A stretch of DNA of 64,000 nt from Escherichia phage HY03. Made by a program: the position numbers and the translations under genes. Below are positions 239 through 30,025 of the stretch, one piece after another; position 1 is the first letter of the stretch, and each line of letters starts with the position of its first letter. Location: the sequence record NC_031047.1, one strand, 5' to 3'. The notes below the pieces were generated by a model that saw only the letters and a list, made by a program, of their open reading frames with translations, ran no database searches and was not told where the DNA came from.

Positions 239-1863
<1,625 letters not shown>

Positions 1864-11065: not shown

Positions 11066-12574
11066 ATGGATATTAAAGTACATTTTCACGACTTCAGTCA
11101 TGTACGCATCGATTGTGAAGAGAGCACGTTCCACGAATTAAGAGATTTCTTTTCGTTTGAGGCCGATGGATATAGATTTAACCCTCGCTTCAGATATGGC
11201 AACTGGGATGGACGAATCCGTCTTTTAGATTATAATCGTCTTCTTCCATTCGGCTTAGTCGGGCAAATTAAAAAGTTCTGTGATAACTTTGGCTATAAAG
11301 CCTGGATTGACCCACAAATTAACGAAAAAGAAGAATTATCAAGAAAAGATTTTGATGAATGGCTTTCTAAATTAGAAATCTATTCAGGAAATAAAAGAAT
11401 TGAACCACACTGGTATCAAAAAGATGCAGTGTTCGAAGGATTAGTTAATCGTCGTAGAATTCTTAATCTTCCAACATCCGCTGGTAAATCGTTAATTCAA
11501 GCTTTGCTTGCGCGATATTATTTGGAAAATTATGAAGGTAAAATTCTTATCATTGTTCCAACAACTGCTCTAACAACTCAGATGGCTGATGACTTCGTTG
11601 ACTATCGTTTATTCAGTCATGCAATGATAAAGAAAATTGGTGGCGGAGCATCAAAAGATGATAAATATAAAAATGATGCACCAGTCGTTGTTGGTACATG
11701 GCAAACTGTAGTAAAACAACCGAAAGAATGGTTCTCACAGTTTGGAATGATGATGAATGATGAATGCCATCTTGCTACAGGAAAAAGTATTTCATCTATC
11801 ATATCAGGTTTAAATAACTGCATGTTCAAATTTGGTCTATCTGGTTCATTACGTGATGGCAAAGCCAATATCATGCAGTATGTTGGAATGTTTGGTGAAA
11901 TATTTAAGCCAGTAACGACTTCTAAGTTAATGGAAGATGGACAAGTAACTGAGCTAAAAATTAATAGTATTTTTCTTCGCTATCCCGATGAGTTCACTAC
12001 TAAATTAAAGGGAAAAACTTATCAAGAAGAAATAAAAATTATTACGGGGCTTAGTAAAAGAAATAAATGGATCGCTAAATTGGCTATTAAGCTTGCACAA
12101 AAAGATGAAAACGCTTTTGTCATGTTTAAACACGTATCGCACGGTAAAGCTATTTTCGATTTAATTAAAAATGAATACGATAAAGTTTATTACGTATCAG
12201 GGGAAGTTGATACCGAAACCCGCAACGTAATGAAAACCTTAGCTGAAAATGGTAAAGGAATAATTATAGTAGCTAGTTATGGTGTATTTTCTACTGGTAT
12301 TTCAGTTAAAAATCTGCATCACGTTGTTTTAGCGCACGGTGTTAAATCAAAAATCATTGTATTACAAACAATCGGTCGTGTATTACGTAAGCATGGTTCT
12401 AAGACAATAGCAACGGTCTGGGACCTCATTGATGACGCGGGCGTAGTTTCTAAATCAAAAACATCTTCTAAAAAATACTCGCATTTAAACTATCTTTTAA
12501 AACATGGACTTGATCGTATTCAGCGTTATGCTGATGAGAAGTTTAATTATGTGATGAAAGAGGTTAAACTTTGA
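11066..12574 (+). CDS. uvsW: UvsW RNA-DNA and DNA-DNA helicase
   Basis: 502-aa SF2 helicase (Walker A PTSAGKS, DECH box). Confidence 0.95.
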   Translation: MDIKVHFHDFSHVRIDCEESTFHELRDFFSFEADGYRFNPRFRYGNWDGRIRLLDYNRLLPFGLVGQIKKFCDNFGYKAWIDPQINEKEELSRKDFDEWLSKLEIYSGNKRIEPHWYQKDAVFEGLVNRRRILNLPTSAGKSLIQALLARYYLENYEGKILIIVPTTALTTQMADDFVDYRLFSHAMIKKIGGGASKDDKYKNDAPVVVGTWQTVVKQPKEWFSQFGMMMNDECHLATGKSISSIISGLNNCMFKFGLSGSLRDGKANIMQYVGMFGEIFKPVTTSKLMEDGQVTELKINSIFLRYPDEFTTKLKGKTYQEEIKIITGLSKRNKWIAKLAIKLAQKDENAFVMFKHVSHGKAIFDLIKNEYDKVYYVSGEVDTETRNVMKTLAENGKGIIIVASYGVFSTGISVKNLHHVVLAHGVKSKIIVLQTIGRVLRKHGSKTIATVWDLIDDAGVVSKSKTSSKKYSHLNYLLKHGLDRIQRYADEKFNYVMKEVKL

Positions 12575-13263
12575 ATTATAAATTAATATACGATAATTTA
12601 ATTAATAGAGCCCAGAATCGGGCTCGCCTTAATGGATACACTGAAACTCATCATATAATTCCTAGATGTATGGGCGGTACAGATGATAAGTGTAATTTGG
12701 TAGAACTAACAGCTGAAGAGCATTTTATAGCTCATAAACTTTTAGCTAAAATTCATCCAAACCATTACGGTATAATTAAAGCCGTTATATGTATGGGGAT
12801 GAATTCAAAAACTCATGAAAGACACGTTAATAAATCTTACGCCTGGGAACGTCGTAAAATGGCAGAACTTCAATCAGGTGAAGGTAATCCATTTTACGGA
12901 AAACACCATACGGAAGAACATAAACAATATATGTCAAAACTCATGAAAAATCGTCCAATTACGTGGGGAAGTAAAATTAGTAAAACTAAAAGAATGAACC
13001 CAACAAAATGGACTGAAGAAGCTAAAAGATTGCATTCTATCAATCAATCAGGTAAAAATAATGGCATGTATGGAAGGAAACATTCCGCTAAATCTATTCA
13101 GAAAATTAAAGATAACATGCCAGATAATTCAGGAGCTAATAACCCAGCTGCTAAACCTATAGAAGTAAATGGTGTTAAGTATAAATGCATGAAAGATGCT
13201 TCTAAAGCTACTGGATTATCAATGTACAAACTAAGAATACTTAGAAAAACAGTTAATTTATAA
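12571..13263 (+). CDS. HNH homing endonuclease, free-standing, with repeated Gly-rich DNA-binding modules
   Basis: HNH motif THHIIPRCMGG...NLVELTAEEH; TTG start overlapping uvsW stop with GAGG RBS; no ORF at this position in T4 as I recall it. Confidence 0.8.
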   Translation: MNYKLIYDNLINRAQNRARLNGYTETHHIIPRCMGGTDDKCNLVELTAEEHFIAHKLLAKIHPNHYGIIKAVICMGMNSKTHERHVNKSYAWERRKMAELQSGEGNPFYGKHHTEEHKQYMSKLMKNRPITWGSKISKTKRMNPTKWTEEAKRLHSINQSGKNNGMYGRKHSAKSIQKIKDNMPDNSGANNPAAKPIEVNGVKYKCMKDASKATGLSMYKLRILRKTVNL

Positions 13264-13742: not shown

Positions 13743-13865
13743 GATTGTCTCCTTTTGAATATAGTAATATTTATAAACCCATTTTAATCCGCATTTCTTG
13801 TACACGGATTAAGCAAGCTTCCATCTCTGCTAATAGTCGAAATACTTCTTTATAATCTGTCATAT

Positions 13866-14572: not shown

Positions 14573-14971
14573 TTATACCCTATTACTCGAAGCCAGTTGC
14601 AGTTTTATCTGCTCAATATCATCAGGGTTATCGATGACCGAAAAGCGTATTTCTACTATCAGAGTATAATCATCATAAACTGGTATCACATTAACTGATA
14701 ATTTATCAATACGTGGCTCATAGTTTCTTACTGCGCTTTCGATATTGCGCTCAACTGTGTCAGCAGTAAGAGGAGTCATATTTTCAAAAAGCTGGTCTGA
14801 TAAATCACATCCAAATTCAGGGTCAAACGGTCTTGAACCTTTTCTTGTTGTAATAATTCCCAAAAGACTGTTTTTAATTGACCTTAATCCAAGTGATCTG
14901 GAAACATCTTTGTTCCAATCCATTTTCATTTCCGGGTCAATATCAGAATAAAGCTTATTAATATTTGCCAT
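14573..14971 (-). CDS. 25: baseplate wedge protein gp25
   Basis: 132-aa ORF matching T4 gp25. Confidence 0.9.
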   Translation of the reverse strand: MANINKLYSDIDPEMKMDWNKDVSRSLGLRSIKNSLLGIITTRKGSRPFDPEFGCDLSDQLFENMTPLTADTVERNIESAVRNYEPRIDKLSVNVIPVYDDYTLIVEIRFSVIDNPDDIEQIKLQLASSNRV

Positions 14972-15597
14972 TATAGTAACTCAAAGAACTCTTTGAGGCC
15001 TCTTATTACATGAGCATGGGTTTTTCCACACTCTGGACATTTAATTGGAACAGCCAAATAGACGGTAGGTTTTAAAAGCATATCTTTTATAGCTACAATA
15101 TCTGACTCTGTGATGATAGAATATAAATCTTCTAGTTCCTTTTCATTTAAGTCTTCAACTGGAATGCTTTCCCCGTTAGCATGAATCGTTTCTATGCATG
15201 ATACTATCATGTGGGCTATATTTTTATCATCAAAAATTTTAGGGTATCGGAATTTAATTTTAATGTCACCCAGTGTATACCAGAGGTCTTCTGGTGCATC
15301 TATTTGTGTATGTAATAGATTTATATGGGTTGGTATTTCAGTTCCACAGGTGCACTTCCAGGAGTTTTCGTGATTAACTTCGCCGAGAGAATGTGCCCAT
15401 AAATGAATCAACAATAGTTCTGATTCTTGGCGGTTTAAATCTTTTGCATTTGTGCAGTCTTTGATTAGCTTTTTAACAATTACTTCTACAGAACCATTAT
15501 TTTTGGCAGTAATAAGTTCTAGATATTCTTTAAGCGTGAATGCGCGACAATTGATTATTTTAGAACCAACTCTCACATCAAATTTGTATTCATACAT
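14971..15597 (-). CDS. 26: baseplate hub protein gp26
   Basis: 208-aa ORF in conserved position. Confidence 0.9.
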
Positions 15598-15618
15598 ATT
15601 TAGCTCCTTTATTTATCA

Positions 15619-15626
15619 TATTTATA
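15619..15626 (-). promoter_or_regulatory. late promoter TATAAATA on the minus strand for genes 26-25
   Basis: Plus-strand TATTTATA, 22 nt upstream of the gp26 ATG. Confidence 0.6.
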
Positions 15627-15630
15627 AATA
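15623..15630 (+). promoter_or_regulatory. late promoter TATAAATA for gene 51, overlapping the divergent gene 26 promoter
   Basis: TATTTATAAATA composite element; gp51 ATG at 15648. Confidence 0.6.
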
Positions 15631-15647
15631 GAATAAAAGGAGCATCT

Positions 15648-16397
15648 ATGGCAAACATTATTCGTTGTAAATTACCAGATGGTGTTCATCGTTTTAAACC
15701 ATTTACGGTAGAAGATTATCGAGATTTTTTGTTAGTTCGAAACGATATAGAACATCGGTCACCACAAGAACAAAAAGAAGTAATTGCTGATTTAATTGCT
15801 GATTATTTTGGAGACTATCCGAAGACTTGGCAACCATTTATATTTTTGCAGGTATTTGTAGGGTCGATAGGTAAAACTAAAGTACCGGTCACATTTGTAT
15901 GCCCAAAATGTAAAAAAGAAAAGACAGTTCCATTTGAAATATATCAAAAAGAATTAAAGGAACCTATTTTTGACGTAGCTAATGTTAGAATTAAATTAAA
16001 TTTTCCTTCTGAGTTTTATGAAAATAAAGCAAAGATGATTACTGAAAATATTCATTCTGTTCAAGTAGATGAAATATGGTATGATTGGAAGGAAATTAGT
16101 GAATCAAGTCAAATAGAACTTGTTGACGCCATTGAGATAGAAACATTAGAAAAAATTCTCGATGCAATGAATCCTATTAATTTAACACTGCATATGTCGT
16201 GTTGTAATAAGTATGTAAAAAAATACACTGATATAGTAGATGTGTTTAAGCTATTAGTTAACCCAGATGAAATATTTACTTTTTATCAAATTAATCACAC
16301 ACTTGTAAAAAGTAATTATAGCTTAAATTCAATAATGAAAATGATTCCTGCTGAGCGCGGATTCGTATTAAAACTGATTGAGAAGGATAAACAATAA
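15648..16397 (+). CDS. 51: baseplate hub assembly protein gp51
   Basis: 249-aa ORF in conserved position. Confidence 0.9.
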
Positions 16398-17572
16398 TGA
16401 GTATGTTGCAACGCCCCGGATATCCAAATCTCAGCGTTAAATTATTTGAGAGTTATGACGCTTGGAGTAATAATAGATTTGTTGAATTAGCTGCTACTAT
16501 TACCACATTAACTATGCGGGATTCTCTTTATGGTCGAAATGAAGGAATGCTACAGTTTTATGATTCTAAAAATATCCATACAAAAATGGATGGAAATGAA
16601 ATAATTCAGATTTCTGTAGCTAACGCAAACGATATTAATAATGTTAAAACACGAATTTATGGATGTAAGCATTTTTCTGTATCTGTAGATTCAAAGGGCG
16701 ATAACATCATTGCTATTGAATTGGGAACTATTCATTCCATAGAAAATCTTAAATTTGGCAGACCGTTTTTCTCTGATGCAGGTGAATCTATAAAAGAAAT
16801 GCTTGGTGTCATTTATCAAGACCGCACATTATTAACTCCAGCAATAAATGCTATAAATGCTTATGTTCCTGATATTCCATGGACTAGTACATTTGAAAAT
16901 TATTTGTCCTATGTAAGAGAAGTTGCTCTAGCTGTAGGAAGTGACAAATTTGTATTTGTGTGGCAAGACATCATGGGAGTTAACATGATGGATTATGATA
17001 TGATGATAAATCAAGAACCATATCCAATGATTGTAGGTGAGCCATCTTTAATAGGTCAATTCATCCAAGAATTAAAATATCCATTGGCATATGATTTTGT
17101 TTGGTTGACTAAATCAAACCCGCATAAACGTGATCCAATGAAAAATGCTACTATCTATGCTCATTCGTTTTTAGATTCTTCACTGCCAATGATTACTACA
17201 GGAAAGGGTGAAAACTCTATTGTAGTGTCAAGGTCAGGTGCTTATTCTGAAATGACTTATAGGAATGGATATGAAGAAGCTATTCGTCTTCAAACTATGG
17301 CGCAATATGACGGCTATGCTAAATGTTCTACTGTCGGTAATTTTAACTTGACACCTGGCGTTAAAATTATTTTTAATGATAGTAAAAACCAATTTAAAAC
17401 AGAATTTTACGTTGATGAAGTTATCCACGAATTATCCAATAATAATTCAGTAACTCATCTATATATGTTCACTAATGCAACGAAACTGGAAACAATAGAC
17501 CCAGTTAAGGTTAAAAATGAATTTAAATCTGATACTACCACTGAAGAAAGTAGTTCTTCCAATAAGCAATAA
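16397..17572 (+). CDS. 27: baseplate hub protein gp27
   Basis: 391-aa ORF matching T4 gp27. Confidence 0.95.
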
Positions 17573-18050
17573 AGAAGTTTCTATTCCTAAAATGGGTCTT
17601 AAACACTATAACATTTTAAAAGATGTTAAAGGTCCTGATGAAAATTTAAAACTTTTGATCGATTCTATTTGTCCGAATTTGTCACCGGCAGAAGTTGATT
17701 TCGTTTCTATTCATTTATTGGAATTTAATGGAAAGATTAAATCTCGTAAAGAAATAGATGGTTATACTTATGACATTAATGATGTTTATGTGTGCCAAAG
17801 ATTAGAATTTCAATACCAAGGAAATACATTTTATTTTAGACCTCCTGGAAAATTTGAGCAATTTTTGACAGTAAGCGATATGTTATCTAAATGCTTGCTT
17901 AAGGTCAATGATGAAGTTAAAGAAATTAATTTTCTTGAGATGCCAGCATTTGTATTAAAATGGGCAAATGATATTTCTACAACTTTAGCAATTCCTGGCC
18001 CTAATGGTCCAATAACTGGAATTGGCAATATTATTGGATTATTTGAATGA
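17517..18050 (+). CDS. 28: baseplate hub distal subunit gp28
   Basis: 177-aa ORF overlapping the gp27 3' end. Confidence 0.85.
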
Positions 18051-19819
18051 AAAAGCCACAAGAAATGCAAACGATGCGTAGAAAAGTTATTTCAGATAAT
18101 AAACCAGTTCAGGAAGCGGCTAAATCCGCTTCTAATACTTTATCTGGACTTAACGATATATCTACGAAATTGGATGATGCTCAAGCTGCTTCTGAATTAA
18201 TTGCTCAAACTGTCGAAGAAAAATCGAATGAAATAATTGGAGCAATTGACAATGTAGAAAGCGCAGTGAGTGATACTACTGCTGGTTCTGAGTTAATTGC
18301 TGAAACTGTTGAAATTGGCAATAATATTAATAAAGAAATCGGCGAATCGCTCGGGAGCAAATTAGATAAATTAACAAGTTTACTAGAGCAAAAAATTCAG
18401 ACAGCTGGAATTCAACAGACTGGAACTAGTTTAGCCACGGTTGAAAGCGCTATTCCTGTTAAAGTTGTTGAGGACGATACAGCTGAATCTGTGGGTCCTT
18501 TATTACCGGCTCCTGAAGCAGTTAATAATGATCCTGATGCTGATTTTTTCCCTACCCCTCAGCCAGTTGAACCCAAACAAGAATCGCCAGAAGAAAAACA
18601 GAAAAAAGAAGCATTTAATTTAAAATTATCTCAAGCTTTAGATAAATTAACAAAGACTGTTGATTTTGGATTTAAAAAATCCATTTCAATTACTGATAAA
18701 ATATCAAGTATGCTATTTAAGTATACTGTCAGTGCTGCTATTGAAGCTGCTAAAATGGTTGCATTAATAATGGCTGTTGTTATTGGAATAGACCTACTGA
18801 TGGTTCATTTTAAATATTGGTCAGATAAATTTTCAAAAGCCTGGGATTTGTTTAGCACTGATTTTAAAACTTTTTCAAGCGAAACCGGAACTTGGGGTCC
18901 TTTATTACAGAGCATCTTTGAATCTATTGATGAAATTAAAAAGTTCTGGGAAGCTGGAGACTGGGGTGGATTGACAGTAGCTATTGTGGAAGGACTTGGA
19001 AGTGTTCTTTATAATTTAGGAGAACTTATTCAACTTGGAATGGCTAAATTATCAGCAGCAATTCTTCGAGTTATTCCTGGTATGAAGGATACCGCTGATG
19101 AAGTAGAAGGAAGAGCATTAGAAAATTTCCAAAATTCTACTGGAGCATCTCTCAATAAAGAAGACCAAGAAAAAGTAGCAAATTATCAAGATAAACGAAT
19201 GAATGACGATCTTGGTCCAATAGCAAAAGGATTAGATAAAATTGCTAATTGGAAAACCCGTGCATCTAACTGGATTCGTGGTGTTGATAATAAAGAAGCA
19301 TTGACAACCGATGAAGAACGCGCAGCAGAAGAAGAAAAATTAAAGCAACTTTCACCAGAAGAAAGAAAAAACGCTTTAATGAAGGCTAATGAAGCTCGTG
19401 CTGCGATGATTCGTTTTGAAAAATATGCCGATTCAGCTGATATGAGTAAAGACTCAACAGTTAAATCAATTGAAGCCGCTCATGAAGACCTTAAAAAACG
19501 GATGAATGACCCGGATTTAAATAATTCACCTGCAGTTAAAAAGGAGCTTGCTTCTAGATTTGCTAAAATTGATGCTACTTATCAAGAGCTTAAGAAAAAT
19601 CAACCTGAGGCCAAACCTGAAACTTCTGCTAAATCGCCAGAAGCAAAACAAGTCCAGGTAATAGAAAAGAACAAAGCGCAACAAGCTCCTGTTCAACAAG
19701 CATCTCCTTCAATCAATAATACTAATAATGTTATTAAGAAAAATACTGTCGTTCATAATATGACACCTGTTACGAGTACAACTGCTCCTGGTGTATTTGG
19801 CGCGACTGGAGTTAATTAA
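18047..19819 (+). CDS. 29: tail length tape-measure / baseplate hub protein gp29
   Basis: 590-aa ORF in conserved position. Confidence 0.9.
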   Translation: MKKPQEMQTMRRKVISDNKPVQEAAKSASNTLSGLNDISTKLDDAQAASELIAQTVEEKSNEIIGAIDNVESAVSDTTAGSELIAETVEIGNNINKEIGESLGSKLDKLTSLLEQKIQTAGIQQTGTSLATVESAIPVKVVEDDTAESVGPLLPAPEAVNNDPDADFFPTPQPVEPKQESPEEKQKKEAFNLKLSQALDKLTKTVDFGFKKSISITDKISSMLFKYTVSAAIEAAKMVALIMAVVIGIDLLMVHFKYWSDKFSKAWDLFSTDFKTFSSETGTWGPLLQSIFESIDEIKKFWEAGDWGGLTVAIVEGLGSVLYNLGELIQLGMAKLSAAILRVIPGMKDTADEVEGRALENFQNSTGASLNKEDQEKVANYQDKRMNDDLGPIAKGLDKIANWKTRASNWIRGVDNKEALTTDEERAAEEEKLKQLSPEERKNALMKANEARAAMIRFEKYADSADMSKDSTVKSIEAAHEDLKKRMNDPDLNNSPAVKKELASRFAKIDATYQELKKNQPEAKPETSAKSPEAKQVQVIEKNKAQQAPVQQASPSINNTNNVIKKNTVVHNMTPVTSTTAPGVFGATGVN

Positions 19820-19827
19820 GGAATAAT

Positions 19828-20922
19828 ATGGCAATTGTTAAAGAAATAACTGCTGATTTAATTAAAAAGTCTGGCGAGACAATTTCAGCTGGACAGAGTA
19901 CTAAATCAGAAGTAGGAACTAAAACATACACAGCCCAGTTTCCAACTGGGCGTGCTAGTGGGAATGACACTACAGGGGACTTCCAGGTAACAGATCTATA
20001 TAAGAATGGATTATTATTTACTGCATACAATATGTCATCTAGGGATTCTGGAAGTCTCAGAACGATGAGATCTAACTACTCTTCTTCATCTTCTAGTATT
20101 TTACGTACAGCCAGAAACACTATCAGTAATACAGTATCAAAACTGTCAAATGGATTAATATCAGATAATAATTCAGGAACAATAAGTAAAGCCCCTGTTG
20201 CAAATATTCTTTTACCAAGATCTAAATCTGATGTTGATACATCATCACATAGATTTAATGATGTTCAAGAAAGTCTTATCAGCAGAGGCGGAGGTACTGC
20301 TACTGGTGTGCTAAGTAATATTGCTTCAACTGCAGTATTTGGGGCACTGGAAAGTATAACACAAGGTATAATGGCTGATAATAATGAGCAGATTTATACT
20401 ACAGCCAGAAGTATGTATGGTGGTGCTGAGAATAGAACTAAAGTGTTTACATGGGATTTGACTCCACGTTCAACAGAAGATTTAATGGCTATTATTAATA
20501 TCTATCAGTATTTTAACTATTTTTCTTATGGTGAAACGGGCAAATCTCAATATGCTGCTGAAATAAAGGGGTATTTAGATGATTGGTATCGTTCTACGTT
20601 AATTGAACCTTTATCTCCGGAAGACGCAGCTAAAAATAAAACACTATTTGAGAAAATGACATCGAGTTTAACTAACGTTTTAGTAGTTTCAAACCCGACA
20701 ATTTGGATGGTGAAAAACTTTGGTGCAACATCTAAGTTTGATGGAAAAACTGAAATATTTGGTCCATGCCAAATACAGAGCATCAGATTTGATAAAACAC
20801 CTAATGGTAACTTTAACGGATTAGCTATTGCTCCAAACCTCCCTAGTACATTTACTCTTGAGATTACTATGAGAGAAATTATCACGTTAAACCGTGCTTC
20901 TTTATATGCGGGGACTTTTTAA
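19828..20922 (+). CDS. 48: baseplate tail-tube junction protein gp48
   Basis: 364-aa ORF in conserved position. Confidence 0.9.
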   Translation: MAIVKEITADLIKKSGETISAGQSTKSEVGTKTYTAQFPTGRASGNDTTGDFQVTDLYKNGLLFTAYNMSSRDSGSLRTMRSNYSSSSSSILRTARNTISNTVSKLSNGLISDNNSGTISKAPVANILLPRSKSDVDTSSHRFNDVQESLISRGGGTATGVLSNIASTAVFGALESITQGIMADNNEQIYTTARSMYGGAENRTKVFTWDLTPRSTEDLMAIINIYQYFNYFSYGETGKSQYAAEIKGYLDDWYRSTLIEPLSPEDAAKNKTLFEKMTSSLTNVLVVSNPTIWMVKNFGATSKFDGKTEIFGPCQIQSIRFDKTPNGNFNGLAIAPNLPSTFTLEITMREIITLNRASLYAGTF

Positions 20923-21845
20923 TGTATTCTTTAGAGGAATTTAATAATCAAGCAATAAACGCAGATTTCCAACGTAATAATATGTTTAGCTGCGTTTTTG
21001 CGACAACTCCATCAACTAAAAGCTCTTCGTTGATAAGTTCAATTAGCAACTTTTCTTATAATAACTTGGGCTTAAATTCAGATTGGTTAGGATTGACTCA
21101 AGACGATATTAATCAGGGAATTACTACGCTAATTACTGCTGGCACACAAAAACTGATAAGAAAATCAGGGGTTAGTAAATATCTTATTGGTGCCATGAGT
21201 CAACGTACAGTTCAAAGCTTATTAGGCTCATTTACAGTTGGTACATATTTAATTGACTTCTTTAACATGGCATATAACTCATCTGGATTGATGATATACT
21301 CCGTAAAAATGCCAGAGAATAGATTATCCTATGAAACTGACTGGAACTATAATTCTCCTAATATTCGCATAACCGGAAGAGAATTAGACCCTTTGGTTAT
21401 TTCATTTAGAATGGATTCAGAAGCTTGTAACTATCGTGCAATGCAAGACTGGGTTAACTCCGTTCAAGACCCAGTAACTGGATTACGCGCTTTGCCGCAA
21501 GATGTCGAGGCAGATATTCAGGTTAATCTTCATTCTCGCAATGGATTGCCTCATACTGCGGTGATGTTCACCGGATGCATTCCAATATCAGTGAGCGCTC
21601 CTGAGTTATCATATGATGGAGATAACCAAATAACTACATTTGATGTTACTTTTGCGTATAGAGTGATGCAGGCTGGAGCGGTTGATAGGCAAGCTGCGCT
21701 TGAATGGCTTGAATCTGCTGCTATAAATGGTATTCAAAGCGTTCTCGGAAATAGTGGAGGTGTTACTGGACTATCTAATTCGCTTTCACGACTTAGTAGA
21801 CTAGGAGGAACCTCAGGAAGCATTTCAAATATTAGTATACTATGA
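20922..21845 (+). CDS. 54: baseplate tail-tube initiator gp54
   Basis: 307-aa ORF in conserved position after gp48. Confidence 0.9.
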   Translation: MYSLEEFNNQAINADFQRNNMFSCVFATTPSTKSSSLISSISNFSYNNLGLNSDWLGLTQDDINQGITTLITAGTQKLIRKSGVSKYLIGAMSQRTVQSLLGSFTVGTYLIDFFNMAYNSSGLMIYSVKMPENRLSYETDWNYNSPNIRITGRELDPLVISFRMDSEACNYRAMQDWVNSVQDPVTGLRALPQDVEADIQVNLHSRNGLPHTAVMFTGCIPISVSAPELSYDGDNQITTFDVTFAYRVMQAGAVDRQAALEWLESAAINGIQSVLGNSGGVTGLSNSLSRLSRLGGTSGSISNISIL

Positions 21846-21894
21846 CAGGGATTGTCAATTCGCAGAGTAAAATATTAGGAGCAATATAACAACG

Positions 21895-21911
21895 GGGACC
21901 TTTCGGTCCCC
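21895..21911. terminator. bidirectional stem-loop GGGGACC-UUUC-GGUCCCC between gene 54 and a convergent gene
   Basis: Perfect 7-bp GC stem. Confidence 0.7.
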
Positions 21912-21917
21912 ATATTT

Positions 21918-22208
21918 TTATTTGCGGAATGAAATGAAAGCAGAAACTGAAGCAACTAAACTGTCTTCAATATAAACTTCAATTTTTACCGGAGCTTCTG
22001 ACTCAAATTTACCTGTTACTACACCCTGAAAAATACTTTCAGTCTGTTCTGGCTTTGAAAAATTTTCAGAAGGAAAAATTCCGAACTTTTTATCTGTTCC
22101 AAAAATTTTAATAAATTCATCGTAAACCGCTTCGTTAAAAGCATTATCAGCAGGAATAACGCCTTCAACTACAAGTTCTTGACCTAAAAAGCGTAAAGAA
22201 GATTTCAT
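21918..22208 (-). CDS. hypothetical early protein
   Basis: 96-aa ORF with GAGGA RBS and its own minus-strand early promoter. Confidence 0.6.
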   Translation of the reverse strand: MKSSLRFLGQELVVEGVIPADNAFNEAVYDEFIKIFGTDKKFGIFPSENFSKPEQTESIFQGVVTGKFESEAPVKIEVYIEDSLVASVSAFISFRK

Positions 22209-22239
22209 TTTGTGTTCCTCATGTTATGTCAGTAAGACT

Positions 22240-22269
22240 ACTATAACACAACACGAGGGACTTGTAAAC
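22240..22269 (-). promoter_or_regulatory. T4-type early promoter on the minus strand
   Basis: Minus strand reads GTTTAC, 18 nt, TATAGT upstream of the 96-aa gene. Confidence 0.6.
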
Positions 22270-22591
22270 TACATTTTGAACTTTTTAGTACGCGTAATAG
22301 GCATGCGTCGATTTTATACTGTTTCATTGTTTGAAGAGCAGTATCAAAAACAGCATTAATGACACCAATTGGATTTCCACCCAAGTTTTTAAGCTTAACT
22401 AATGATAGTTTCTAGTTTCTCATTAACACCTATCATTACGATATGCATCATTTTGTCGCCTGGTTTAACGTTTTATCTGTATCACCGCCAGAGGTGTATG
22501 TACAAAATCTAAATCCAGGAAGCACGCTTTCTTCGCCGGCTTGAATAGCAAAAATTTGTGGTATTTTATGCTTAGGATTTAAGTTAACAAC

Positions 22592-22607
22592 CGGCGCCGA
22601 AGCGCCG
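22592..22607 (-). other. GC stem-loop with UUCG loop 3' of the 214-aa ORF
   Basis: CGGCGC-CGAA-GCGCCG; no U-tract on either strand. Confidence 0.4.
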
Positions 22608-22636
22608 TCAAATAATTATGTAATAAGTTCCATGAT

Positions 22637-23281
22637 TTATCCTTGAACGAACTTGTAAGGCATGTTTGCAATATCTATGCAAGACGCAATAATTCCAAGA
22701 GATGATTCTACTTTCTGTTTAACATTTGATGAAACAAATGATGCAAAGTCAACTCTGTCTTCTATTTCAATATCACCTGTCATTGCAACTACTTCACCAG
22801 TTTCCATTAGACGGTCACCGTCATAAATTACTGATTCGGTGAGTTCTTCCGTAGTCATAACTTCAGCTTGAATGAGTTTTGTATTATTAAATGTTGTTCC
22901 GTCATTATTAGAAGCATCAGTTATTTTATTAACTTTGACCATCAATCCACGTGGTAGAATAACTTCAGCTTCTGTTGCTATTCCGAGACTTCCTGGATAT
23001 ACAACATTAACTTTATGAGCTCCATCAATTGCCCATCCTATTTGAACTTTAACGTATTCAGGATTTTCTTTATACGCTCTTATTTCGTTTGGATTAATAG
23101 TTATTCCTTCTTCATTTTTATCAACTGTCAATTCATTACGAGCTTCTGGTTCTAAAAGACCGATACCAGCATGTGTAATTCCAAAACGTCCAAAAATGAT
23201 AGGAGTTAAAGAAGTAGATACAAAATTTCTGAAATAGAACACTTTATTTTTAACTAATGCTTCGTATATAGGAGCAGTCAA
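22637..23281 (-). CDS. hypothetical protein, possibly a 5'-truncated gene remnant at the synteny breakpoint
   Basis: 214-aa ORF whose only start is TTG without RBS; in-frame stop 6 codons upstream; abuts the divergent 116-aa gene. Confidence 0.45.
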   Translation of the reverse strand: MTAPIYEALVKNKVFYFRNFVSTSLTPIIFGRFGITHAGIGLLEPEARNELTVDKNEEGITINPNEIRAYKENPEYVKVQIGWAIDGAHKVNVVYPGSLGIATEAEVILPRGLMVKVNKITDASNNDGTTFNNTKLIQAEVMTTEELTESVIYDGDRLMETGEVVAMTGDIEIEDRVDFASFVSSNVKQKVESSLGIIASCIDIANMPYKFVQG

Positions 23282-23282
23282 T

Positions 23283-23633
23283 ATGAAAGGTAATGTTTAT
23301 TTAGTAGTTCATGATTTAACATTCTATTTTAATCATAATGATACTGTTATTTCTGAACGTGTAATTAATTTGCTTTATCAGCATGCAGATTATGTTTATG
23401 TCGAAAACGAATATGGTCATTGGCAATTTCTCAAAAATCGTTCATTTGGTTTAGATGGTTACGAATATTTTGATCGTAAAGACCTTTTAGATACAATTCC
23501 GTTATCTACACAATATCAAAATCATAAGTCTTTACATAAATGCCGGCTAATTCGAAATGCTGAATCCGCGTATGAAGCAATTGATTTATGGCGTAAACGC
23601 CGTGAACAGATTGATGCTTTAAAAGAATATTAA
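23283..23633 (+). CDS. hypothetical protein
   Basis: 116-aa ORF with AGGAG RBS, immediately upstream of the structured RNA locus. Confidence 0.65.
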   Translation: MKGNVYLVVHDLTFYFNHNDTVISERVINLLYQHADYVYVENEYGHWQFLKNRSFGLDGYEYFDRKDLLDTIPLSTQYQNHKSLHKCRLIRNAESAYEAIDLWRKRREQIDALKEY

Positions 23634-23639
23634 GAAACC

Positions 23640-23940
23640 GGGTCGCTACCGGTAAGTCGTCGGACTGATGTTCCCTGGAGTATAGTTTCCTCCCACAGTT
23701 TTACTGTGTTCTGGCTCTTTACTATTACAGCAGAAACGGCGCACCGAATTATCGATTCGAGGAAATATCTTTGCCATAAGCCGAGTAGCGTTTTTGACGG
23801 AACGTTCGGATATGGTCGAGATATGGCCTTTTAAAAATATTGAGTAGCGTCAACTACTTAATAACCGGGTTCAAATCCCGGCGTTTCGTACAAACACTTG
23901 CCTTAGCAGGTGGAACCCCGACAAGGTTGCCGCAAGGCTT
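23640..23940 (+). ncRNA. structured non-coding RNA locus (tRNA-cluster remnant or stable small RNA); contains a tRNA-like T-arm
   Basis: 300 nt without ORF, GC-richer than flanks, several hairpins, canonical T-arm CCGGG-TTCAAAT-CCCGG at 23865-23881, GNRA-capped helices. Confidence 0.4.
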
Positions 23941-23969
23941 AGCCCTGACCGAAAGGTTGGGGCTTTTTA
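23941..23969 (+). terminator. intrinsic terminator: 10-bp stem, GAAA loop, U5 tail
   Basis: AGCCCTGACC-GAAA-GGTTGGGGCT followed by TTTTT. Confidence 0.8.
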
Positions 23970-24043
23970 GTTTGAATCACTCAGAGAATGCTGTTACGGA
24001 TAATAAATAATTAATAACCAATAAATTATTTCAAGGATTTTAA

Positions 24044-24607
24044 ATGAAAACCTATGCCGAATTTTTAACTGAAGCAGCAAAATTACCATCTGAAGCAGAT
24101 CTTACTAAAGTATTCTTCCACTTGGACCCAAAAGACCGGGGCGATTTTCTTAAGTGGAAAGCTAAAGCTATTGAAATGTATAACATCGATAACAGTTCTT
24201 TTACGATGAGCCAAGAAAATAGTTTCAATAAAGCATTTTTCAAAATTTCTAAGAAATTGGCATCTGGCGCTCAGGTTTCTAAATCTGCATTAGCTACTCC
24301 TGAACGTGCACCTGTTAAAATTTCTAAGAATATGTTTGACACTAAAAAATATGTCAATGCTTTGAATAAAGCTCTTGATGCATTGGATGATGCAAAGAAG
24401 GCAGCCCGCGATCTTCAAGACGTGTATACCGATTTTGATCGTAAAACTAAAGGTTCTATTTCAAATAGCGAACGCAATAGTGTAAGTGTTTATTCTGATA
24501 GCCTTGATGTTCTTGGCGATGCATATACTGAAATTAAAAATCGTATTAACACCGCATCTAAGCTAAAAGCTGCTGCAGAAGCTATAATAACTAAACTAGG
24601 TAAATAA
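24044..24607 (+). CDS. internal protein-like capsid-targeted protein (N-terminal CTS MKTYAEFLTEA)
   Basis: 187-aa ORF beginning with the T4 IP capsid-targeting sequence, predicted gp21 cleavage after LTEA. Confidence 0.8.
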   Translation: MKTYAEFLTEAAKLPSEADLTKVFFHLDPKDRGDFLKWKAKAIEMYNIDNSSFTMSQENSFNKAFFKISKKLASGAQVSKSALATPERAPVKISKNMFDTKKYVNALNKALDALDDAKKAARDLQDVYTDFDRKTKGSISNSERNSVSVYSDSLDVLGDAYTEIKNRINTASKLKAAAEAIITKLGK

Positions 24608-24615
24608 TTTTAAAT

Positions 24616-24640
24616 CCCTATCTAAATGATAGGGCTTTTT
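24616..24640 (+). terminator. stem-loop CCCTATC-TAAAT-GATAGGG with T-run
   Basis: 7-bp stem then CTTTTT. Confidence 0.6.
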
Positions 24641-24762
24641 GGTATCTAGGCCTTTCCGGGCCTCTCTAGGCATCATTTAGTTTATATCCTTTATAATATA
24701 TTATCCTACCTTTTAATTGCCCCTCCCCGCCCTAAAATTCCCTAAAAATTTTTCACAAAACT

Positions 24763-24792
24763 GTTTACATCCCTGTTCTTCTATGGTACTAT
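24763..24792 (+). promoter_or_regulatory. T4-type early promoter (GTTTAC, 18 nt, TACTAT) with A/T-rich UP region
   Basis: Part of the repeated promoter-leader cassette family. Confidence 0.7.
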
Positions 24793-24835
24793 ATCAATAT
24801 CAACTACTGATACAGAAAACAACTTGGAGAATAAA

Positions 24836-25099
24836 ATGGATAATTACGGTGAACTGTTCAACTTCTTTATGAAATGTGTTTCAGAAGATTTCGGTCGTAC
24901 AGTGAATGATATTAAAGTTATCGGTCCTGATCATCCGATGTTTGAAACTTACGCAGTAATGGGTAATGAAGATGGTCAGTGGTATACTGTAAAGGTTGTG
25001 ATTAACATGTTCACTGCTGAAGGTTATGTTAAACTGTCTTCTAAAGTTTACCATGATAACGATGAAATCGCAGAAGAATATTTCAATAATATGAAATAA
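24836..25099 (+). CDS. hypothetical protein
   Basis: 87 aa from ATG with GGAGA RBS (ORF track starts at upstream TTG). Confidence 0.65.
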   Translation: MDNYGELFNFFMKCVSEDFGRTVNDIKVIGPDHPMFETYAVMGNEDGQWYTVKVVINMFTAEGYVKLSSKVYHDNDEIAEEYFNNMK

Positions 25100-25167
25100 T
25101 TGTGTACAAACACCAAGGACGGTGTTATTATAGACTTATCAAAACAAATACAGAAACGGAGAAATAA

Positions 25168-25332
25168 ATGACTACTTTAATTATTTGGTTTGACGAAAAT
25201 GAAGAAACATACTGCGTGAACATTGGCGAAAGCCCAATGCCAGAATTTGAATCTTCGGATAAAAACTCGGTTGTATCTTGGGCTGAAGGTTATAAAGCAG
25301 CAAAAGGCGATGTTGAAATAGTTTACAAATAA
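25168..25332 (+). CDS. small acidic hypothetical protein (54 aa)
   Basis: ATG with GGAG RBS at 7-nt spacing; below the ORF track length cutoff. Confidence 0.45.
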   Translation: MTTLIIWFDENEETYCVNIGESPMPEFESSDKNSVVSWAEGYKAAKGDVEIVYK

Positions 25333-25375
25333 TACTCTTATGGATTTTAAATCTTAATTAACCTAAGGAAATACT

Positions 25376-25969
25376 ATGAACACACTGAAGAAAATTGTTG
25401 AGTTTATTCGCACTAAACTTGGTTCTGCTATGGCTAAAAATTTATCCGTTGAAGAACAGTATACTGCTGCGGCAGCAAAACTACTTGATAAGATTAAAGA
25501 TCTAAAAACTGCTTCTGTTAAATCTATTAATGAAGAAAAGCGTATTCGTGAACTTATTGTCGAAAAGAATAAGCAGGCCGAATCAAAAGAGCGTGAAATT
25601 CGCAAGCTTCTTTCTGAAGGTCAAGATGTAACAATGCATGCTAAACTTGGTTTGCTATATCGTCGAACAGCTGAACAGTTGACTACTAAAGCTGATGGTT
25701 ATGCTGAAATGCGAATTGAAATCGCCAAGAAAGTAGTTGAGTTAGATGATGCTCGCCAAGAACTTGCAGTTAAATTGGAATATATCCGTGAAACTCGTGC
25801 AGCAAATGCCCTTGGAATTAGTACTGCTGATGATGTAGTTGAAATTGCAGCGCTGACTAAGGTTGATATTGAAGATACTCTTGCTCGAGTTGAAACCTTT
25901 AATGGTAATATTTCTGGGGTTGAAACTACCTCTGCCGATGTTCAGGAATACATTAATTCTCTGAAATAA
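25376..25969 (+). CDS. coiled-coil protein, tentatively PspA/IM30 (Vipp1)-like
   Basis: 197-aa all-helical heptad-rich protein whose pattern resembles PspA; assignment from memory only. Confidence 0.5.
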
Positions 25970-26010
25970 TGATAAGGGGCTTAGGCCCCTATTACTTGGA
26001 GTAAATAGGA

Positions 26011-26619
26011 ATGAAAATGCAAAGTGATTTCAATTCAATGTTTGAAGAGTTCCAAAGACAGGTTGATGTTCCAGACCAATTGCTAAATGCTCTTAAACGC
26101 ATGGCAGAAGGACGTAATTATTATTGGGGTTCTTCATATGAAACAGACGAAAGCCTTTCTGGAAGATTTTCCAGAGGTAAAAAGTCTTTAATACGTCCTG
26201 GAATACTTATTAACAGTATTGAATCAATTTATTCATTGACATGCGATTTTGATGTTGAATTTACTGATTTCATTTCTCCTGAATGGACAGTTTGTTATTT
26301 AAACGACGATTTTGATTATCTCGGTGTTTATAGTTTAAGTGACGCATGGTTTAAACGTAACTTACAAAAGTCAAATTTATTCTATATTGATACTACAGTA
26401 AAATTTCAGGGAAAGAAATATTTCTTTACTCTTATAGTTGATTCTGAAACGAAGCATGAAAATAAACGTATTCTTAGTAAAAGAAATATCTTGAATATTG
26501 TTGATGATCTTTTTGATAAATTAGTGGAAAATCCTAATTTTGAAAGTGATTTATTACTAGAAAAATTTGTTAAGGAATGTAGAGAATATGTCAAAACCAT
26601 CACTATACCTTCCAAGTAA
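26011..26619 (+). CDS. hypothetical protein with C-terminal FVKECRE motif
   Basis: 202-aa ORF; C-terminal motif shared with the next three genes. Confidence 0.65.
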   Translation: MKMQSDFNSMFEEFQRQVDVPDQLLNALKRMAEGRNYYWGSSYETDESLSGRFSRGKKSLIRPGILINSIESIYSLTCDFDVEFTDFISPEWTVCYLNDDFDYLGVYSLSDAWFKRNLQKSNLFYIDTTVKFQGKKYFFTLIVDSETKHENKRILSKRNILNIVDDLFDKLVENPNFESDLLLEKFVKECREYVKTITIPSK

Positions 26620-26980
26620 ACCGTTGAAGTATGAATTAAAGCGTCAGATAATTTCTACTGATGTATTAATAGGTCCTGTTATACTTATATCATTTGTAAT
26701 TCTATTGATTATTGGAGGTGTTTTAGATGTTATGACTGATATTGATTCTGGCGAAATACTTGTGTTAATGCTAATTCTTCCATTAATAGTTCCATTTTTA
26801 TTAGTACCTATAAATTGGGTAGGATACTGGTATCAAGGAAGGCATTATCGTAAACGTGTACGTGATTGGAAAGCACAGTGTAAAAAGATTAAAAAGGAAC
26901 ACCAGCTTAAACTTGCTGCGTATGAATTTGATGAAATTATGAAATTTGTTAAGGAATCACGATGCAAAAGCCAAAACTAA
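26588..26980 (+). CDS. small membrane protein (2 predicted TM helices), paralog family
   Basis: 130 aa from ATG; hydrophobic core; C-terminal FVKESRCK motif. Confidence 0.65.
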   Translation: MSKPSLYLPSKPLKYELKRQIISTDVLIGPVILISFVILLIIGGVLDVMTDIDSGEILVLMLILPLIVPFLLVPINWVGYWYQGRHYRKRVRDWKAQCKKIKKEHQLKLAAYEFDEIMKFVKESRCKSQN

Positions 26981-27324
26981 ATAAAGTCAAATATTCGCTT
27001 CCTGAGTCATTTTTAATTTTTGCTGTGGCGTTGGCTGCAGCTCTTGCAGGTAGTATTTTTGGATTGTTAATTGACTGTCTTATTTTAAACATCGACGACA
27101 CAGTAAATATAACAGAAGTTTGGAGTGAGCTTTGTTATACTAAAATTATTTCATTGTTTTCATTCTTTGGTACAATGTTATATTTTCATTATGATAATTT
27201 TAAAATAAATTGGCAAAGAAAAAAGGATTACAAAATACAATTAAAAGAATATAACAACTACGTGTCTTATATTGAAAAAGAATCAATGGAAGAGTTTGTG
27301 AGTGATTGTAGGAAAATCAAATGA
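26962..27324 (+). CDS. small membrane protein, paralog family
   Basis: 120 aa; TM segments; C-terminus EEFVSDCRKIK. Confidence 0.65.
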   Translation: MQKPKLNKVKYSLPESFLIFAVALAAALAGSIFGLLIDCLILNIDDTVNITEVWSELCYTKIISLFSFFGTMLYFHYDNFKINWQRKKDYKIQLKEYNNYVSYIEKESMEEFVSDCRKIK

Positions 27325-27809
27325 TTTTAAAAACTCGCTGGTATGATTTAGATGATGGGGATGATGGCATTTCAGTTGATAGAGTTGATTGGAATGGTTG
27401 TTCCGAAGATACAAAGAAACGATTAATTAGGGAGTTTAGAATGGGATATCAAGCAGCTAAACCATTTACTGTAACAGATGATAAATTCGTGTGTATTCAA
27501 AATGGTCGCGCTAAGTTAACGAATGCCGATTGGTTCACAGATAAGAAGGTTATTCTGTGGTATATCATTAGTCTTCCTATATCATCGTTCGTATTTTACT
27601 TTTTTATAAAAAATCCAATGGACAGAATAGGAGATTGGGTTCTTTTAACTATACTTGTTAATATTTTTACAGCAGCAGTATTATCAGGAATATGGCGTAT
27701 GTTCATTGAAATGCCATGGCGTTTACGCAGACAGCAAAAGATTTTTGATGAAAAGAAATATGCTCAAAATTTAAATAACTTTATCACTGAATGCAGGAAA
27801 TTAAAATGA
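27321..27809 (+). CDS. small membrane protein, paralog family
   Basis: 162 aa; TM segments; C-terminus NNFITECRKLK; ATGA overlap with previous gene. Confidence 0.65.
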   Translation: MILKTRWYDLDDGDDGISVDRVDWNGCSEDTKKRLIREFRMGYQAAKPFTVTDDKFVCIQNGRAKLTNADWFTDKKVILWYIISLPISSFVFYFFIKNPMDRIGDWVLLTILVNIFTAAVLSGIWRMFIEMPWRLRRQQKIFDEKKYAQNLNNFITECRKLK

Positions 27810-28246
27810 AAACATTATCAGCTGGTATTATCTTCATGACAGAAGATAAAGATTTATTTATGGGTCGGGTTACTGGTTCTCGTAAGCCTGGAATGATGGC
27901 ACATCGCTGGGATATTCCAAAGGGACGTGTAGAAAGTTCTGATTTGAATGCACTGGAAGCTGCAAAAAGAGAATGCTTAGAAGAGACCGGTTTTAGCAAT
28001 TATAATCCAGACCTTCTAGAAGACCTAGGTGTATTTAAATATTCTAGTAATAAAGACTTACAGTTATTTTATTATACGATTCCAGTAGAGCATGAGATGT
28101 TTAGAAATTGCCATTGTGAGTCTTATTTTGAAAATAAAGATGGTGTTATGATTCCAGAGATGGACGCTTTTGCTCTTATTCCTCGTACTCAGTGGCAATA
28201 TGTGATGGGTCCTTCACTTTACCGAATAATGAACAACCTCTTTTAA
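27791..28246 (+). CDS. nudE: Nudix hydrolase NudE (e.1)
   Basis: 151 aa; Nudix box GRVESSDLNALEAAKRECLEETGF. Confidence 0.85.
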   Translation: MQEIKMKTLSAGIIFMTEDKDLFMGRVTGSRKPGMMAHRWDIPKGRVESSDLNALEAAKRECLEETGFSNYNPDLLEDLGVFKYSSNKDLQLFYYTIPVEHEMFRNCHCESYFENKDGVMIPEMDAFALIPRTQWQYVMGPSLYRIMNNLF

Positions 28247-28777
<531 letters not shown>

Positions 28778-28781
28778 AGCT

Positions 28782-28811
28782 GTTTACTTTCTCTTAGAAT
28801 TGTGATAGTAT
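28782..28811 (+). promoter_or_regulatory. early promoter (GTTTAC, 18 nt, TAGTAT)
   Basis: Directly after the e stop, upstream of the second IP-like gene. Confidence 0.65.
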
Positions 28812-28870
28812 ATTCACAGTTACTTGAATAGACAATTACCAATTAAAATATTTACATTTAAAGGAAACAC

Positions 28871-29344
28871 ATGAAAACATATCAAGAATTTATTACTGAA
28901 GCAGCTATTAATTCTCAAATTATTGCTGAATCTTTTACTGATCTTTTGAAATTTAAAAAAGGACAGAAAATCACTGCTGTATTGGATGATGGTACAGAAG
29001 TTGAGATGGATGTACAGGGATATAATTATGCAGTAGATGGAAAACTGTATAATAAATCTCATGCTAAATTTGATTCATTTGACGACTTTGTTAATACAGT
29101 TGAAGATGAAAAAACTCGTCGATCCATTGCAACTGGTGATGCTAAGGTTCTTATGGCACATGGTCATGAACGCATTCGCGCTAAACAGAATAAAATGGGT
29201 GAAGATAATTTTGCATTAGTTGGTTATCAATCTGGTAAGCAAACTTATGGCTATCAGCGTACTGCTACCATGTATAATAAAAATGGTAAAATCGCTTTCG
29301 TGAATAGTAAAGGTTCTATTCAGTACGTTAAATCGTTCAAATAA
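28871..29344 (+). CDS. internal protein-like capsid-targeted protein (CTS MKTYQEFITEA)
   Basis: 157 aa with canonical IP capsid-targeting sequence. Confidence 0.8.
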   Translation: MKTYQEFITEAAINSQIIAESFTDLLKFKKGQKITAVLDDGTEVEMDVQGYNYAVDGKLYNKSHAKFDSFDDFVNTVEDEKTRRSIATGDAKVLMAHGHERIRAKQNKMGEDNFALVGYQSGKQTYGYQRTATMYNKNGKIAFVNSKGSIQYVKSFK

Positions 29345-29437
29345 TATGGGAACAACCTGGACCTCATGATTCTGTGAGGGATTCCCGCCAACCTGTAATA
29401 AGGTCGAGCCCAAGTGCGGTAATGGGTAAATACAGAA

Positions 29438-30025
29438 ATGGACAATTCATGCGCCATGGAATGGCCCAAACCTAGAGAGAACAAAATGAGAACATTTTTA
29501 ACTGGTCCTTATCTATCCCTGATGAATGCTTTTACACACCATTCTGATGCTAGAGTAGAAGAAATTTGTAAAAACGATTATATCCCGCCATTTGAAGACT
29601 TACTTAAGCAGTATTGCACACTTCGACTAGATGGTGGACGTCAATCCGGTAAATCAACTGCAGTAACTAATTTTGCCGCTAATTGGTTGTATGACGGTGG
29701 AACAGTTATTGTTCTTTCTAATACTTCAGCTTACGCTAAAATTTCTGCAAATAGCATCAAAAAGGAATTTTTGCGTTATTCTAATGATGATATACGTTTT
29801 CGTTTATTTACTGATTCTGTGCGCAGTTTTATCGGTAATAAAGGAAGCAAGTTCAGAGGTTTAAAGCTTTCGCGAATTTTGTATATAATTGATGAGCCTG
29901 TCAAATCTCCTGATATGGATAAGATTTATAGTGTCCATATTGACACTGTACACTGCTGCTGTAATATTAAATGTTGTATTGGTGGTATTACTCGTCCACA
30001 GTTTTTCGTAATCGGAATGCAATGA
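29438..30025 (+). CDS. hypothetical P-loop protein at the position where T4 has denV
   Basis: Walker A-like GGRQSGKST; start ambiguous (ATG at 29438, 29456 or 29486); no similarity to endonuclease V as recalled. Confidence 0.55.
   Translation: MDNSCAMEWPKPRENKMRTFLTGPYLSLMNAFTHHSDARVEEICKNDYIPPFEDLLKQYCTLRLDGGRQSGKSTAVTNFAANWLYDGGTVIVLSNTSAYAKISANSIKKEFLRYSNDDIRFRLFTDSVRSFIGNKGSKFRGLKLSRILYIIDEPVKSPDMDKIYSVHIDTVHCCCNIKCCIGGITRPQFFVIGMQ

Follow-up and report, generated by a model that had tools for sequence, protein, structure and literature searches.

Symmetric bidirectional promoters have been described for sigma-70 RNA polymerase in E. coli. By definition, transcription starts divergently on the two sides of an element that is shared and pseudo-symmetric, the preferred spacings of the starts being 10, 18 or 23 bp (PMC12825309). 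One polymerase binding event excludes the other at these promoters, and the effects of exclusion were measurable only at high promoter activity (Warman et al., NAR 2026, PMC12825309). Basal activity was too low for the two directions to compete, and competition appeared only when one of them was strongly activated (PMC12825309).

The late promoters of phage T4 carry their box at −13 to −6 (PMC1524935), and an A/T-rich segment, where the DNA melts, follows right after it (PMC2988020). Cryo-EM structures of T4 late complexes show a bubble extending from −12 to +2, in which gp55 binds flipped bases of the non-template strand at −12, −9 and −8; the duplex upstream is contacted by gp33, with gp45 forming a ring around the DNA beside it (PMC7892883). 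The gp45 clamp extends the upstream footprint by 13 bp (PMC2988020) and, according to the literature, its activation is strand-polar. According to a review of late transcription, some of the 50 T4 late sites listed lack proof of activity in vivo, and primer extension does not distinguish initiation from RNA processing (PMC2988020).

The closest described locus is the junction between genes 26 and 51 of T4, whose shared two-way late promoter is already known and has been annotated since 1991. The GenBank record M77695 (genes 25, 26 and uvsY), which corresponds to Gruidl et al. (1991, Virology 184:359), annotates two overlapping TATA_boxes, that of gene 51 at 768..774 and that of gene 26 at 772..779, and states no evidence for them. 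Going by its title, that paper deals with a gene 26/25 unit that overlaps the uvsY unit. Both 8-mers are also annotated as promoters in the records of Escherichia phage Lutter and Yersinia phage fPS-90, in the latter each with the label 'predicted late promoter', and for RB69 a +/− pair of late promoters (118620/118672) spanning the 26/51 spacer was predicted by Nolan et al. (2006). T4 RefSeq and AF158101 were without promoter features in the copies examined, and the string of the 12-mer that contains both boxes was not found in phage papers with searchable text. A paper by Scarlato et al. (1989, Virology 171:475) reportedly has a title stating that 'overlapping promoters direct divergent transcription of the base plate gene cluster'.

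The window analysed here is a stretch of 64,000 nucleotides from Escherichia phage HY03 (NC_031047.1), and all positions refer to it unless another record is named. It belongs to a Tequatrovirus: many genomes of this genus matched positions 14900-16500 at about 98% identity, and RB32 and RB33 were two of the best matches. Judging from this identity, the genome should encode gp55, gp33 and gp45. The source is a close relative of T4 and not T4 itself; nothing is different at the 26/51 locus, where spacer, boxes and overlap are the same. The genes on both sides of the junction and the end of the right-hand unit are the following.

14573-14971, minus strand: gene 25, baseplate wedge subunit, 132 aa; its start overlaps the gene 26 stop (TAATG)
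14971-15597, minus strand: gene 26, hub assembly protein, 208 aa, 100% identical to T4 gp26; PF12322 E = 8.8e-64
15648-16397, plus strand: gene 51, hub assembly protein according to the T4 annotation, 249 aa; PF12322 E = 4.9e-54
16397-21845, plus strand: genes 27, 28, 29, 48 and 54, overlapping or abutting ORFs after gene 51
21892-21913, readable on both strands: terminator-like G+C-rich hairpin GGGGACCTTTCGGTCCCC between the end of gene 54 and the converging genes on the alt side

The first-pass annotation of this DNA had named the flanking genes 26/25 and 51, and these names hold. The 208-aa ORF is gene 26 by its identity to the T4 protein and gene 25 follows from the overlap with its stop codon, while the 249-aa ORF belongs to the same Pfam baseplate family as gp26 and stands where relatives annotate gene 51. 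The ORFs after gene 51, of 391, 177, 590, 364 and 307 aa, are genes 27, 28, 29, 48 and 54. Both gp26 and gp51 matched PF12322 (T4_baseplate) over their full length, a pairwise BLASTP comparison gave 18% identity (E = 4e-4), and a gp26 HMM matched gp51 proteins at 1e-12 to 1e-18. By these matches, the two proteins are evidently head-to-head paralogues, with the palindrome at the centre of the pair. The hairpin at 21892-21913 probably ends the P51 unit. From P51 to this hairpin, no other box with at most one mismatch was found ahead of a Shine-Dalgarno sequence and start codon. Since P51 is the only consensus-like box placed for this block, genes 51 to 54 appear to be P51-dependent.

The control region between the two gene sets contains the following elements.

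15601-15648, both strands: imperfect 48-bp dyad with 24-nt arms and zero gap, 71% complementary, centre 15624/15625
15604-15609, minus strand: Shine-Dalgarno AAGGAG of gene 26, marked as ribosome_binding_site in M77695
15617-15610, minus strand: variant box GATAAATA, a second gene 26 TATA_box in the T4 annotation
15613, minus strand: predicted P26 start (A) from the −13 to −6 rule, with a 16-nt leader AAUAAAGGAGCUAAAU
15619-15630, both strands: palindromic 12-mer TATTTATAAATA, two perfect late-promoter boxes with the central TATA common to both
15626-15619, minus strand: P26 late-promoter box TATAAATA (−13 to −6), facing genes 26 and 25
15623-15630, plus strand: P51 late-promoter box TATAAATA (−13 to −6), facing genes 51-27-28-29-48-54
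15636, plus strand: predicted P51 start (A) from the −13 to −6 rule, with a 12-nt leader AAAGGAGCAUCU
15637-15642, plus strand: Shine-Dalgarno AAGGAG of gene 51, beginning at +2 of the predicted transcript

We conclude that the 12-mer is very probably a shared two-way late promoter, made of two perfect gp55-type boxes placed back to back with their first four bases in common. The first-pass annotation had described overlapping divergent late promoters sharing a palindromic element, with a 4-nt overlap between the minus-strand and plus-strand boxes. The palindrome is found exactly at 15619-15630 and the overlap is the TATA at 15623-15626; both boxes agree with the depositors' annotation in T4 M77695, with that in fPS-90 and Lutter, and with the 2006 RB69 prediction. 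Read in reverse orientation, the TATA_boxes of M77695 are the same bases as the HY03 12-mer. The comparison with the T4 26/51 intergenic region, which the first-pass annotation had named as a check, gave a 50-bp spacer identical base for base to T4 NC_000866 116429-116478, with the same two boxes annotated. With the same position, the same sequence and an identical gp26, the pair is orthologous to P26/P51 of T4.

An overlap of 4 nt is the maximum possible for two perfect divergent TATAAATA boxes. The sequence at 15595-15650 reads catATTTAGCTCCTTTATTTATCATATTTATAAATAGAATAAAAGGAGCATCTatg, and each strand carries its perfect 8-bp box just upstream of, and co-oriented with, late (virion) genes, as fits a location at −13 to −6. 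Downstream of the plus-strand box follows GAATA and downstream of the minus-strand box TGATA, 4/5 A/T in each case, which agrees with the A/T-rich segment of late promoters. The P51 box is separated from the gene 51 ATG by 17 nt and the P26 box from the gene 26 ATG by 21 nt. At the other single boxes in the window this distance is 25-29 nt, and by that measure the 26/51 control region is unusually compressed. The 48-bp dyad is centred in the 12-mer and covers the whole control region, and an SD-like motif occurred at the corresponding place in every related spacer aligned. A cruciform or RNA-structure reading of the palindrome was set aside: it is pure A/T, 12 bp long and without a loop, and the predicted P26 and P51 transcripts do not overlap.

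Chance has to be considered for a short A/T-only element. In the window, TATAAATA was observed 13 times for 10.1 expected and the exact 12-mer once for 0.05 expected, with at least one copy of the 12-mer in 5 out of 100 shuffles. Composition by itself is weak evidence for the site; its position and its conservation are decisive. Indeed, 10 of the 13 perfect 8-mers were wholly non-coding (binomial P = 3.7e-7, with non-coding DNA, taken as that outside long ORFs, making up about 13% of the window), and 9/13 sat 14-30 nt upstream of the ATG of an ORF on the same strand.

Conservation was assessed on 53 gene 26/51 spacers, those of 12 reference genomes at genus level and those of 41 loci on viral contigs that a gp26 alignment had retrieved; redundant genomes are included in these counts. 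The divergent 26/51 layout was constant throughout the survey, with a spacer of 45-70 bp. The exact 12-mer was present in 49 of these 53 spacers (24 distinct 60-mers) and spans at least ten genera (Tequatro-, Karam-, Moon-, Mosig-, Jiaoda-, Marfa-, Dhaka-, Gapriver-, Muldoon- and Lazarusvirus). The spacers that carry it include those of loci with 27-29% gp26 identity and that of an Acinetobacter phage. The bases immediately beside the 12-mer reached 0.1-0.3 bits and the four positions on either side 0.1-0.7 bits; the 2.0 bits within the 12-mer are a product of anchoring the alignment on the exact match, so that the informative figure is 49/53.

The exceptions are instructive as to what is kept. 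Aeromonas phage 25 has a shorter palindrome, TATTTAAATA, and two deep-branching loci have TATAAATATTTATA, in which the same boxes are crossed; one of these loci also has CATTTATAAATA. In Krischvirus (GEC-3S, KFS-EC) an extra T lies inside the palindrome (TATTTTATAAATA); the plus-strand box is perfect, and no minus-strand box within one mismatch was found in the 26/51 spacers of these two phages. A gene 26 promoter at this spot is therefore not indispensable. For RB49, Nolan et al. (2006) listed only a plus-strand site (Pl:106751) near the expected 26/51 junction, its position being judged from GEC-3S. As far as the aligned spacers indicate, the conserved feature is two opposed boxes, usually in their tightest packing.

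Comparable arrangements exist at other divergent late junctions. The spacers between T4 genes 4 and 53 and between Aeh1 gene 4 and a 48-like gene are 47-52 bp long and contain two late boxes and two Shine-Dalgarno sequences in a mirror layout, as at 26/51. The geometry, however, differs. In the T4 gene 4/53 spacer (NC_000866 77338-77384) two perfect boxes are crossed with a 7-bp gap, TATAAATA-GATAATA-TATTTATA, which puts the predicted starts at a distance of only 4 bp and each box inside the leader of the other. In the Aeh1 gene 4/48-like spacer (NC_005260 122786-122837) a 14-bp palindrome, TATTTAGCTAAATA, consists of two abutting copies of CTAAATA, which is the late consensus of Aeh1 itself; it coincides with a site predicted as an overlapping +/− pair by Nolan (2006). 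Where late genes diverge, a compact shared promoter seems to be the usual arrangement.

We also looked at IMG/VR contigs for the 12-mer between two Shine-Dalgarno motifs (CTCC..TATTTATAAATA..GGAG). Among the matches listed there were more than 120 such SD-flanked 12-mers, some of which may be chance matches in A/T-rich phages. Gene 26/51 junctions made up 13 of the 80 SD-flanked loci taken from these listed matches. At the other SD-flanked loci, flanking proteins matched virion-structural PHROGs families in six of nine sampled cases (tail tube, baseplate tail-tube cap, head-tail adaptor, virion structural protein). In environmental contigs, the genes beside the palindrome had almost no Pfam matches, and PHROGs was more informative.

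The published structures of late complexes allow a proposal as to how the two promoters might work. P26 would give rise to a transcript from about 15613 carrying genes 26 and 25, and P51 to one from about 15636 carrying genes 51, 27, 28, 29, 48 and 54; in both, the Shine-Dalgarno sequence would lie almost at the 5' end. The gp55-RNA polymerase would recognise each box only after melting, through flipped non-template bases, and activation would require gp33 and a gp45 sliding clamp docked just upstream. Since clamp activation is strand-polar, P26 and P51 would have to use clamps of opposite orientation, the one for P51 lying over the first codons of gene 26 and the one for P26 over the first codons of gene 51. 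By computation, 23 bp separate the predicted starts, the predicted bubbles extend over 15624-15637 for P51 and 15612-15625 for P26 with a 2-bp overlap at 15624-15625, and the equivalents of −35 fall at 15601 and 15648. The upstream duplex computed for each complex consists of the box, the start site and the early transcribed DNA of the other promoter.

With starts 23 bp apart, overlapping bubbles and each complex covering the other promoter, only one open complex should fit on a DNA molecule at once. The first-pass annotation had predicted mutually exclusive occupancy by the gp55 late transcription complex; for P26 and P51 open complexes on one DNA molecule, we regard such exclusion, steric as well as topological, as a sound structural inference. 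It would apply per DNA copy at one moment, not across the infected cell. After promoter escape, either direction would be able to fire again, and since many genome copies are present late in infection, both units would be expressed in every cell regardless. At low occupancy the consequences of exclusion may be negligible. Of this account, the sequence with its location, its conservation, its identity to T4 and the earlier annotation are direct observations; the box position, the size of the bubble, the contacts of gp55, gp33 and gp45 and the polarity of the clamp come from published work; the exact starts, the steric exclusion and any effect on expression are what we infer.

Like the sigma-70 bidirectional promoters of E. 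coli, P26/P51 has a pseudo-symmetric shared element, which would melt and give divergent starts in the 23-bp spacing class. Measured against the definition of these promoters, the symmetry is seen in the sequence itself, whereas the 23-bp spacing is a prediction. Exclusion by a single polymerase binding event would likewise be common to both. Unlike the sigma-70 pairs, the HY03 promoters would depend on the specificity factor gp55 reading an 8-bp box, have no −35 element, would be activated by a strand-polar sliding clamp and are perfect consensus in both halves.

Could only one of the two boxes be at work, the other being a by-product of the near-palindromic TATAAATA, with gene 26 transcribed from GATAAATA (15617-15610) or by another route? 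Krischvirus, which retains the plus-strand box alone, would fit this reading, as would the second gene 26 box that the T4 depositors annotated at GATAAATA and the reservation in the review that some listed late sites lack proof of activity in vivo. The minus-strand half that is not shared, TATT at 15619-15622, is however invariant in the 24 distinct spacers, in which the positions directly left of it are variable, each box has a Shine-Dalgarno sequence and an ATG at a distance that would work, and lineages without the 12-mer, Krischvirus aside, keep two boxes in another arrangement. As to GATAAATA, it sits 9 bp nearer to gene 26 than the P26 box, is confined to the T4 genus and missing from the spacers of other genera, and its predicted start, 15604, is the last base of the gene 26 Shine-Dalgarno. 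Because of this restricted occurrence and of a start inside the Shine-Dalgarno, the overlapping box is the better candidate for P26, and GATAAATA is probably not the main gene 26 promoter. All in all, we hold a single working box to be very improbable. Still less credit can be given to the idea that the palindrome is kept mainly as a site for a dimeric DNA-binding protein that co-regulates both operons, such as T4 DsbA, which we consider extremely unlikely. The perfect dyad symmetry and exact conservation of the palindrome would fit such a site, and DsbA was reported to bind A/T-rich sites overlapping late promoters, two such promoters being noted in the late-transcription review. Yet the two promoter boxes account for all 12 bases, conservation ends abruptly at the box edges, and DsbA binding is weak (micromolar Kd) and had no effect in vitro. 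Moreover, the deviating lineages keep two boxes while changing the palindrome (TATTTAAATA, TATAAATATTTATA and, in Aeh1, TATTTAGCTAAATA), which fits a constraint on promoters and not a fixed protein site.

Another reading takes the symmetry chiefly as a relic: an ancient inverted duplication would have produced the paralogues 26 and 51 together with a mirrored promoter, leader and Shine-Dalgarno, and the overlap would have no selected role. The full-length PF12322 matches of both proteins, the BLASTP and HMM scores given above and a spacer that is a zero-gap 24+24-nt dyad centred in the 12-mer all speak for it. The symmetric parts are, however, exactly the functional ones (box and Shine-Dalgarno), and similar compact symmetric spacers occur between genes of different annotated roles (T4 4/53, Aeh1 4/48), so that symmetry does not require duplication. 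We see a relic of this kind as possible, though on balance rather unlikely; it concerns the origin of the element and is compatible with the two-way promoter explanation. Within the latter, it may be asked whether the invariant 4-nt overlap, and with it the 23-bp spacing of the starts, is itself under selection as a toggle, each firing committing a genome copy to either the 26-25 or the 51-54 unit. Since gp45 activation is strand-polar, the choice would follow the clamp-loaded strand and hence the polarity of the local replication fork or nick. Were this true, the ratio of hub-assembly to hub-structural protein would be coupled to replication and its variability damped. Slippage by (TA) to TATTTATATAAATA or a duplication of TATA would spare both boxes, and neither was seen in the 24 distinct spacers, which is a point for selection on the overlap; against it, other box geometries work in some lineages. 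We judge the toggle to be improbable.

Some further observations concern other parts of the window. Two perfect TATAAATA boxes stand in tandem on the plus strand at 28249-28269, 13 bp apart, ahead of a 164-aa ORF (28283-28777) which, from its first residues, we take to be T4 lysozyme (gene e); the annotation of relatives has a soluble lysozyme or endolysin here. On the minus strand, a perfect TATAAATA at 13768-13775 is followed after 25 nt by an ATG that has AAGGAG in front of it. The frame begins with MSDKI and stands at the position of T4 uvsY.-2, and this box is likely a late promoter inside the uvsY-distal cluster, to judge from its placement. A 230-aa ORF with NUMOD3 motifs (12571-13263, plus strand; Pfam E = 7.7e-14), between the uvsW helicase gene and a uvsW.1-like ORF, looks like a free-standing homing endonuclease. 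Its region was fully matched in 47 out of 498 Tequatrovirus records, with the annotation 'homing endonuclease' or 'mobile endonuclease E'.

Downstream of the gene 54 block, the window has a breakpoint at 23281-23282 (context 21900-30000) relative to every sequenced relative. Positions 21900-23280 were 98-99% identical to the region of alt (RNA polymerase ADP-ribosyltransferase). The minus-strand ORF at 22637-23281 comprises only 214 codons of an Alt-like protein; T4 Alt has about 680 aa. From 23283 on, the window follows relatives in their e/ipIII/nudE region (about 60-68 kb in Shfl2), in inverted orientation. Of the 848 matching records, not one ran continuously across the 23281-23282 junction, which could be a real rearrangement or an artefact of assembly or a chimera. 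A sequence near 23.85 kb resembles a tRNA, yet ARAGORN predicted no tRNA genes between 21500 and 29000.

In conclusion, the shared late promoter at the 26/51 junction of phage HY03 is that of T4. What is new here is the depth of conservation of the 12-mer and its paralogue context, both incremental additions, together with the comparable compact build of other divergent late junctions; a statement that the exact palindrome is conserved across T4-like phages was not found in the accessible literature. The exact palindrome ranks among the most conserved non-coding features of the 26/51 locus across these phages. For the annotation of the window, one 12-bp element fixes the starts of two late units with eight baseplate genes, 25 and 26 to the left and 51, 27, 28, 29, 48 and 54 to the right. 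The 26/51 spacer is also a clean natural substrate for asking whether polymerase competition, as measured at sigma-70 bidirectional promoters, operates with a clamp-activated, −35-less sigma factor.
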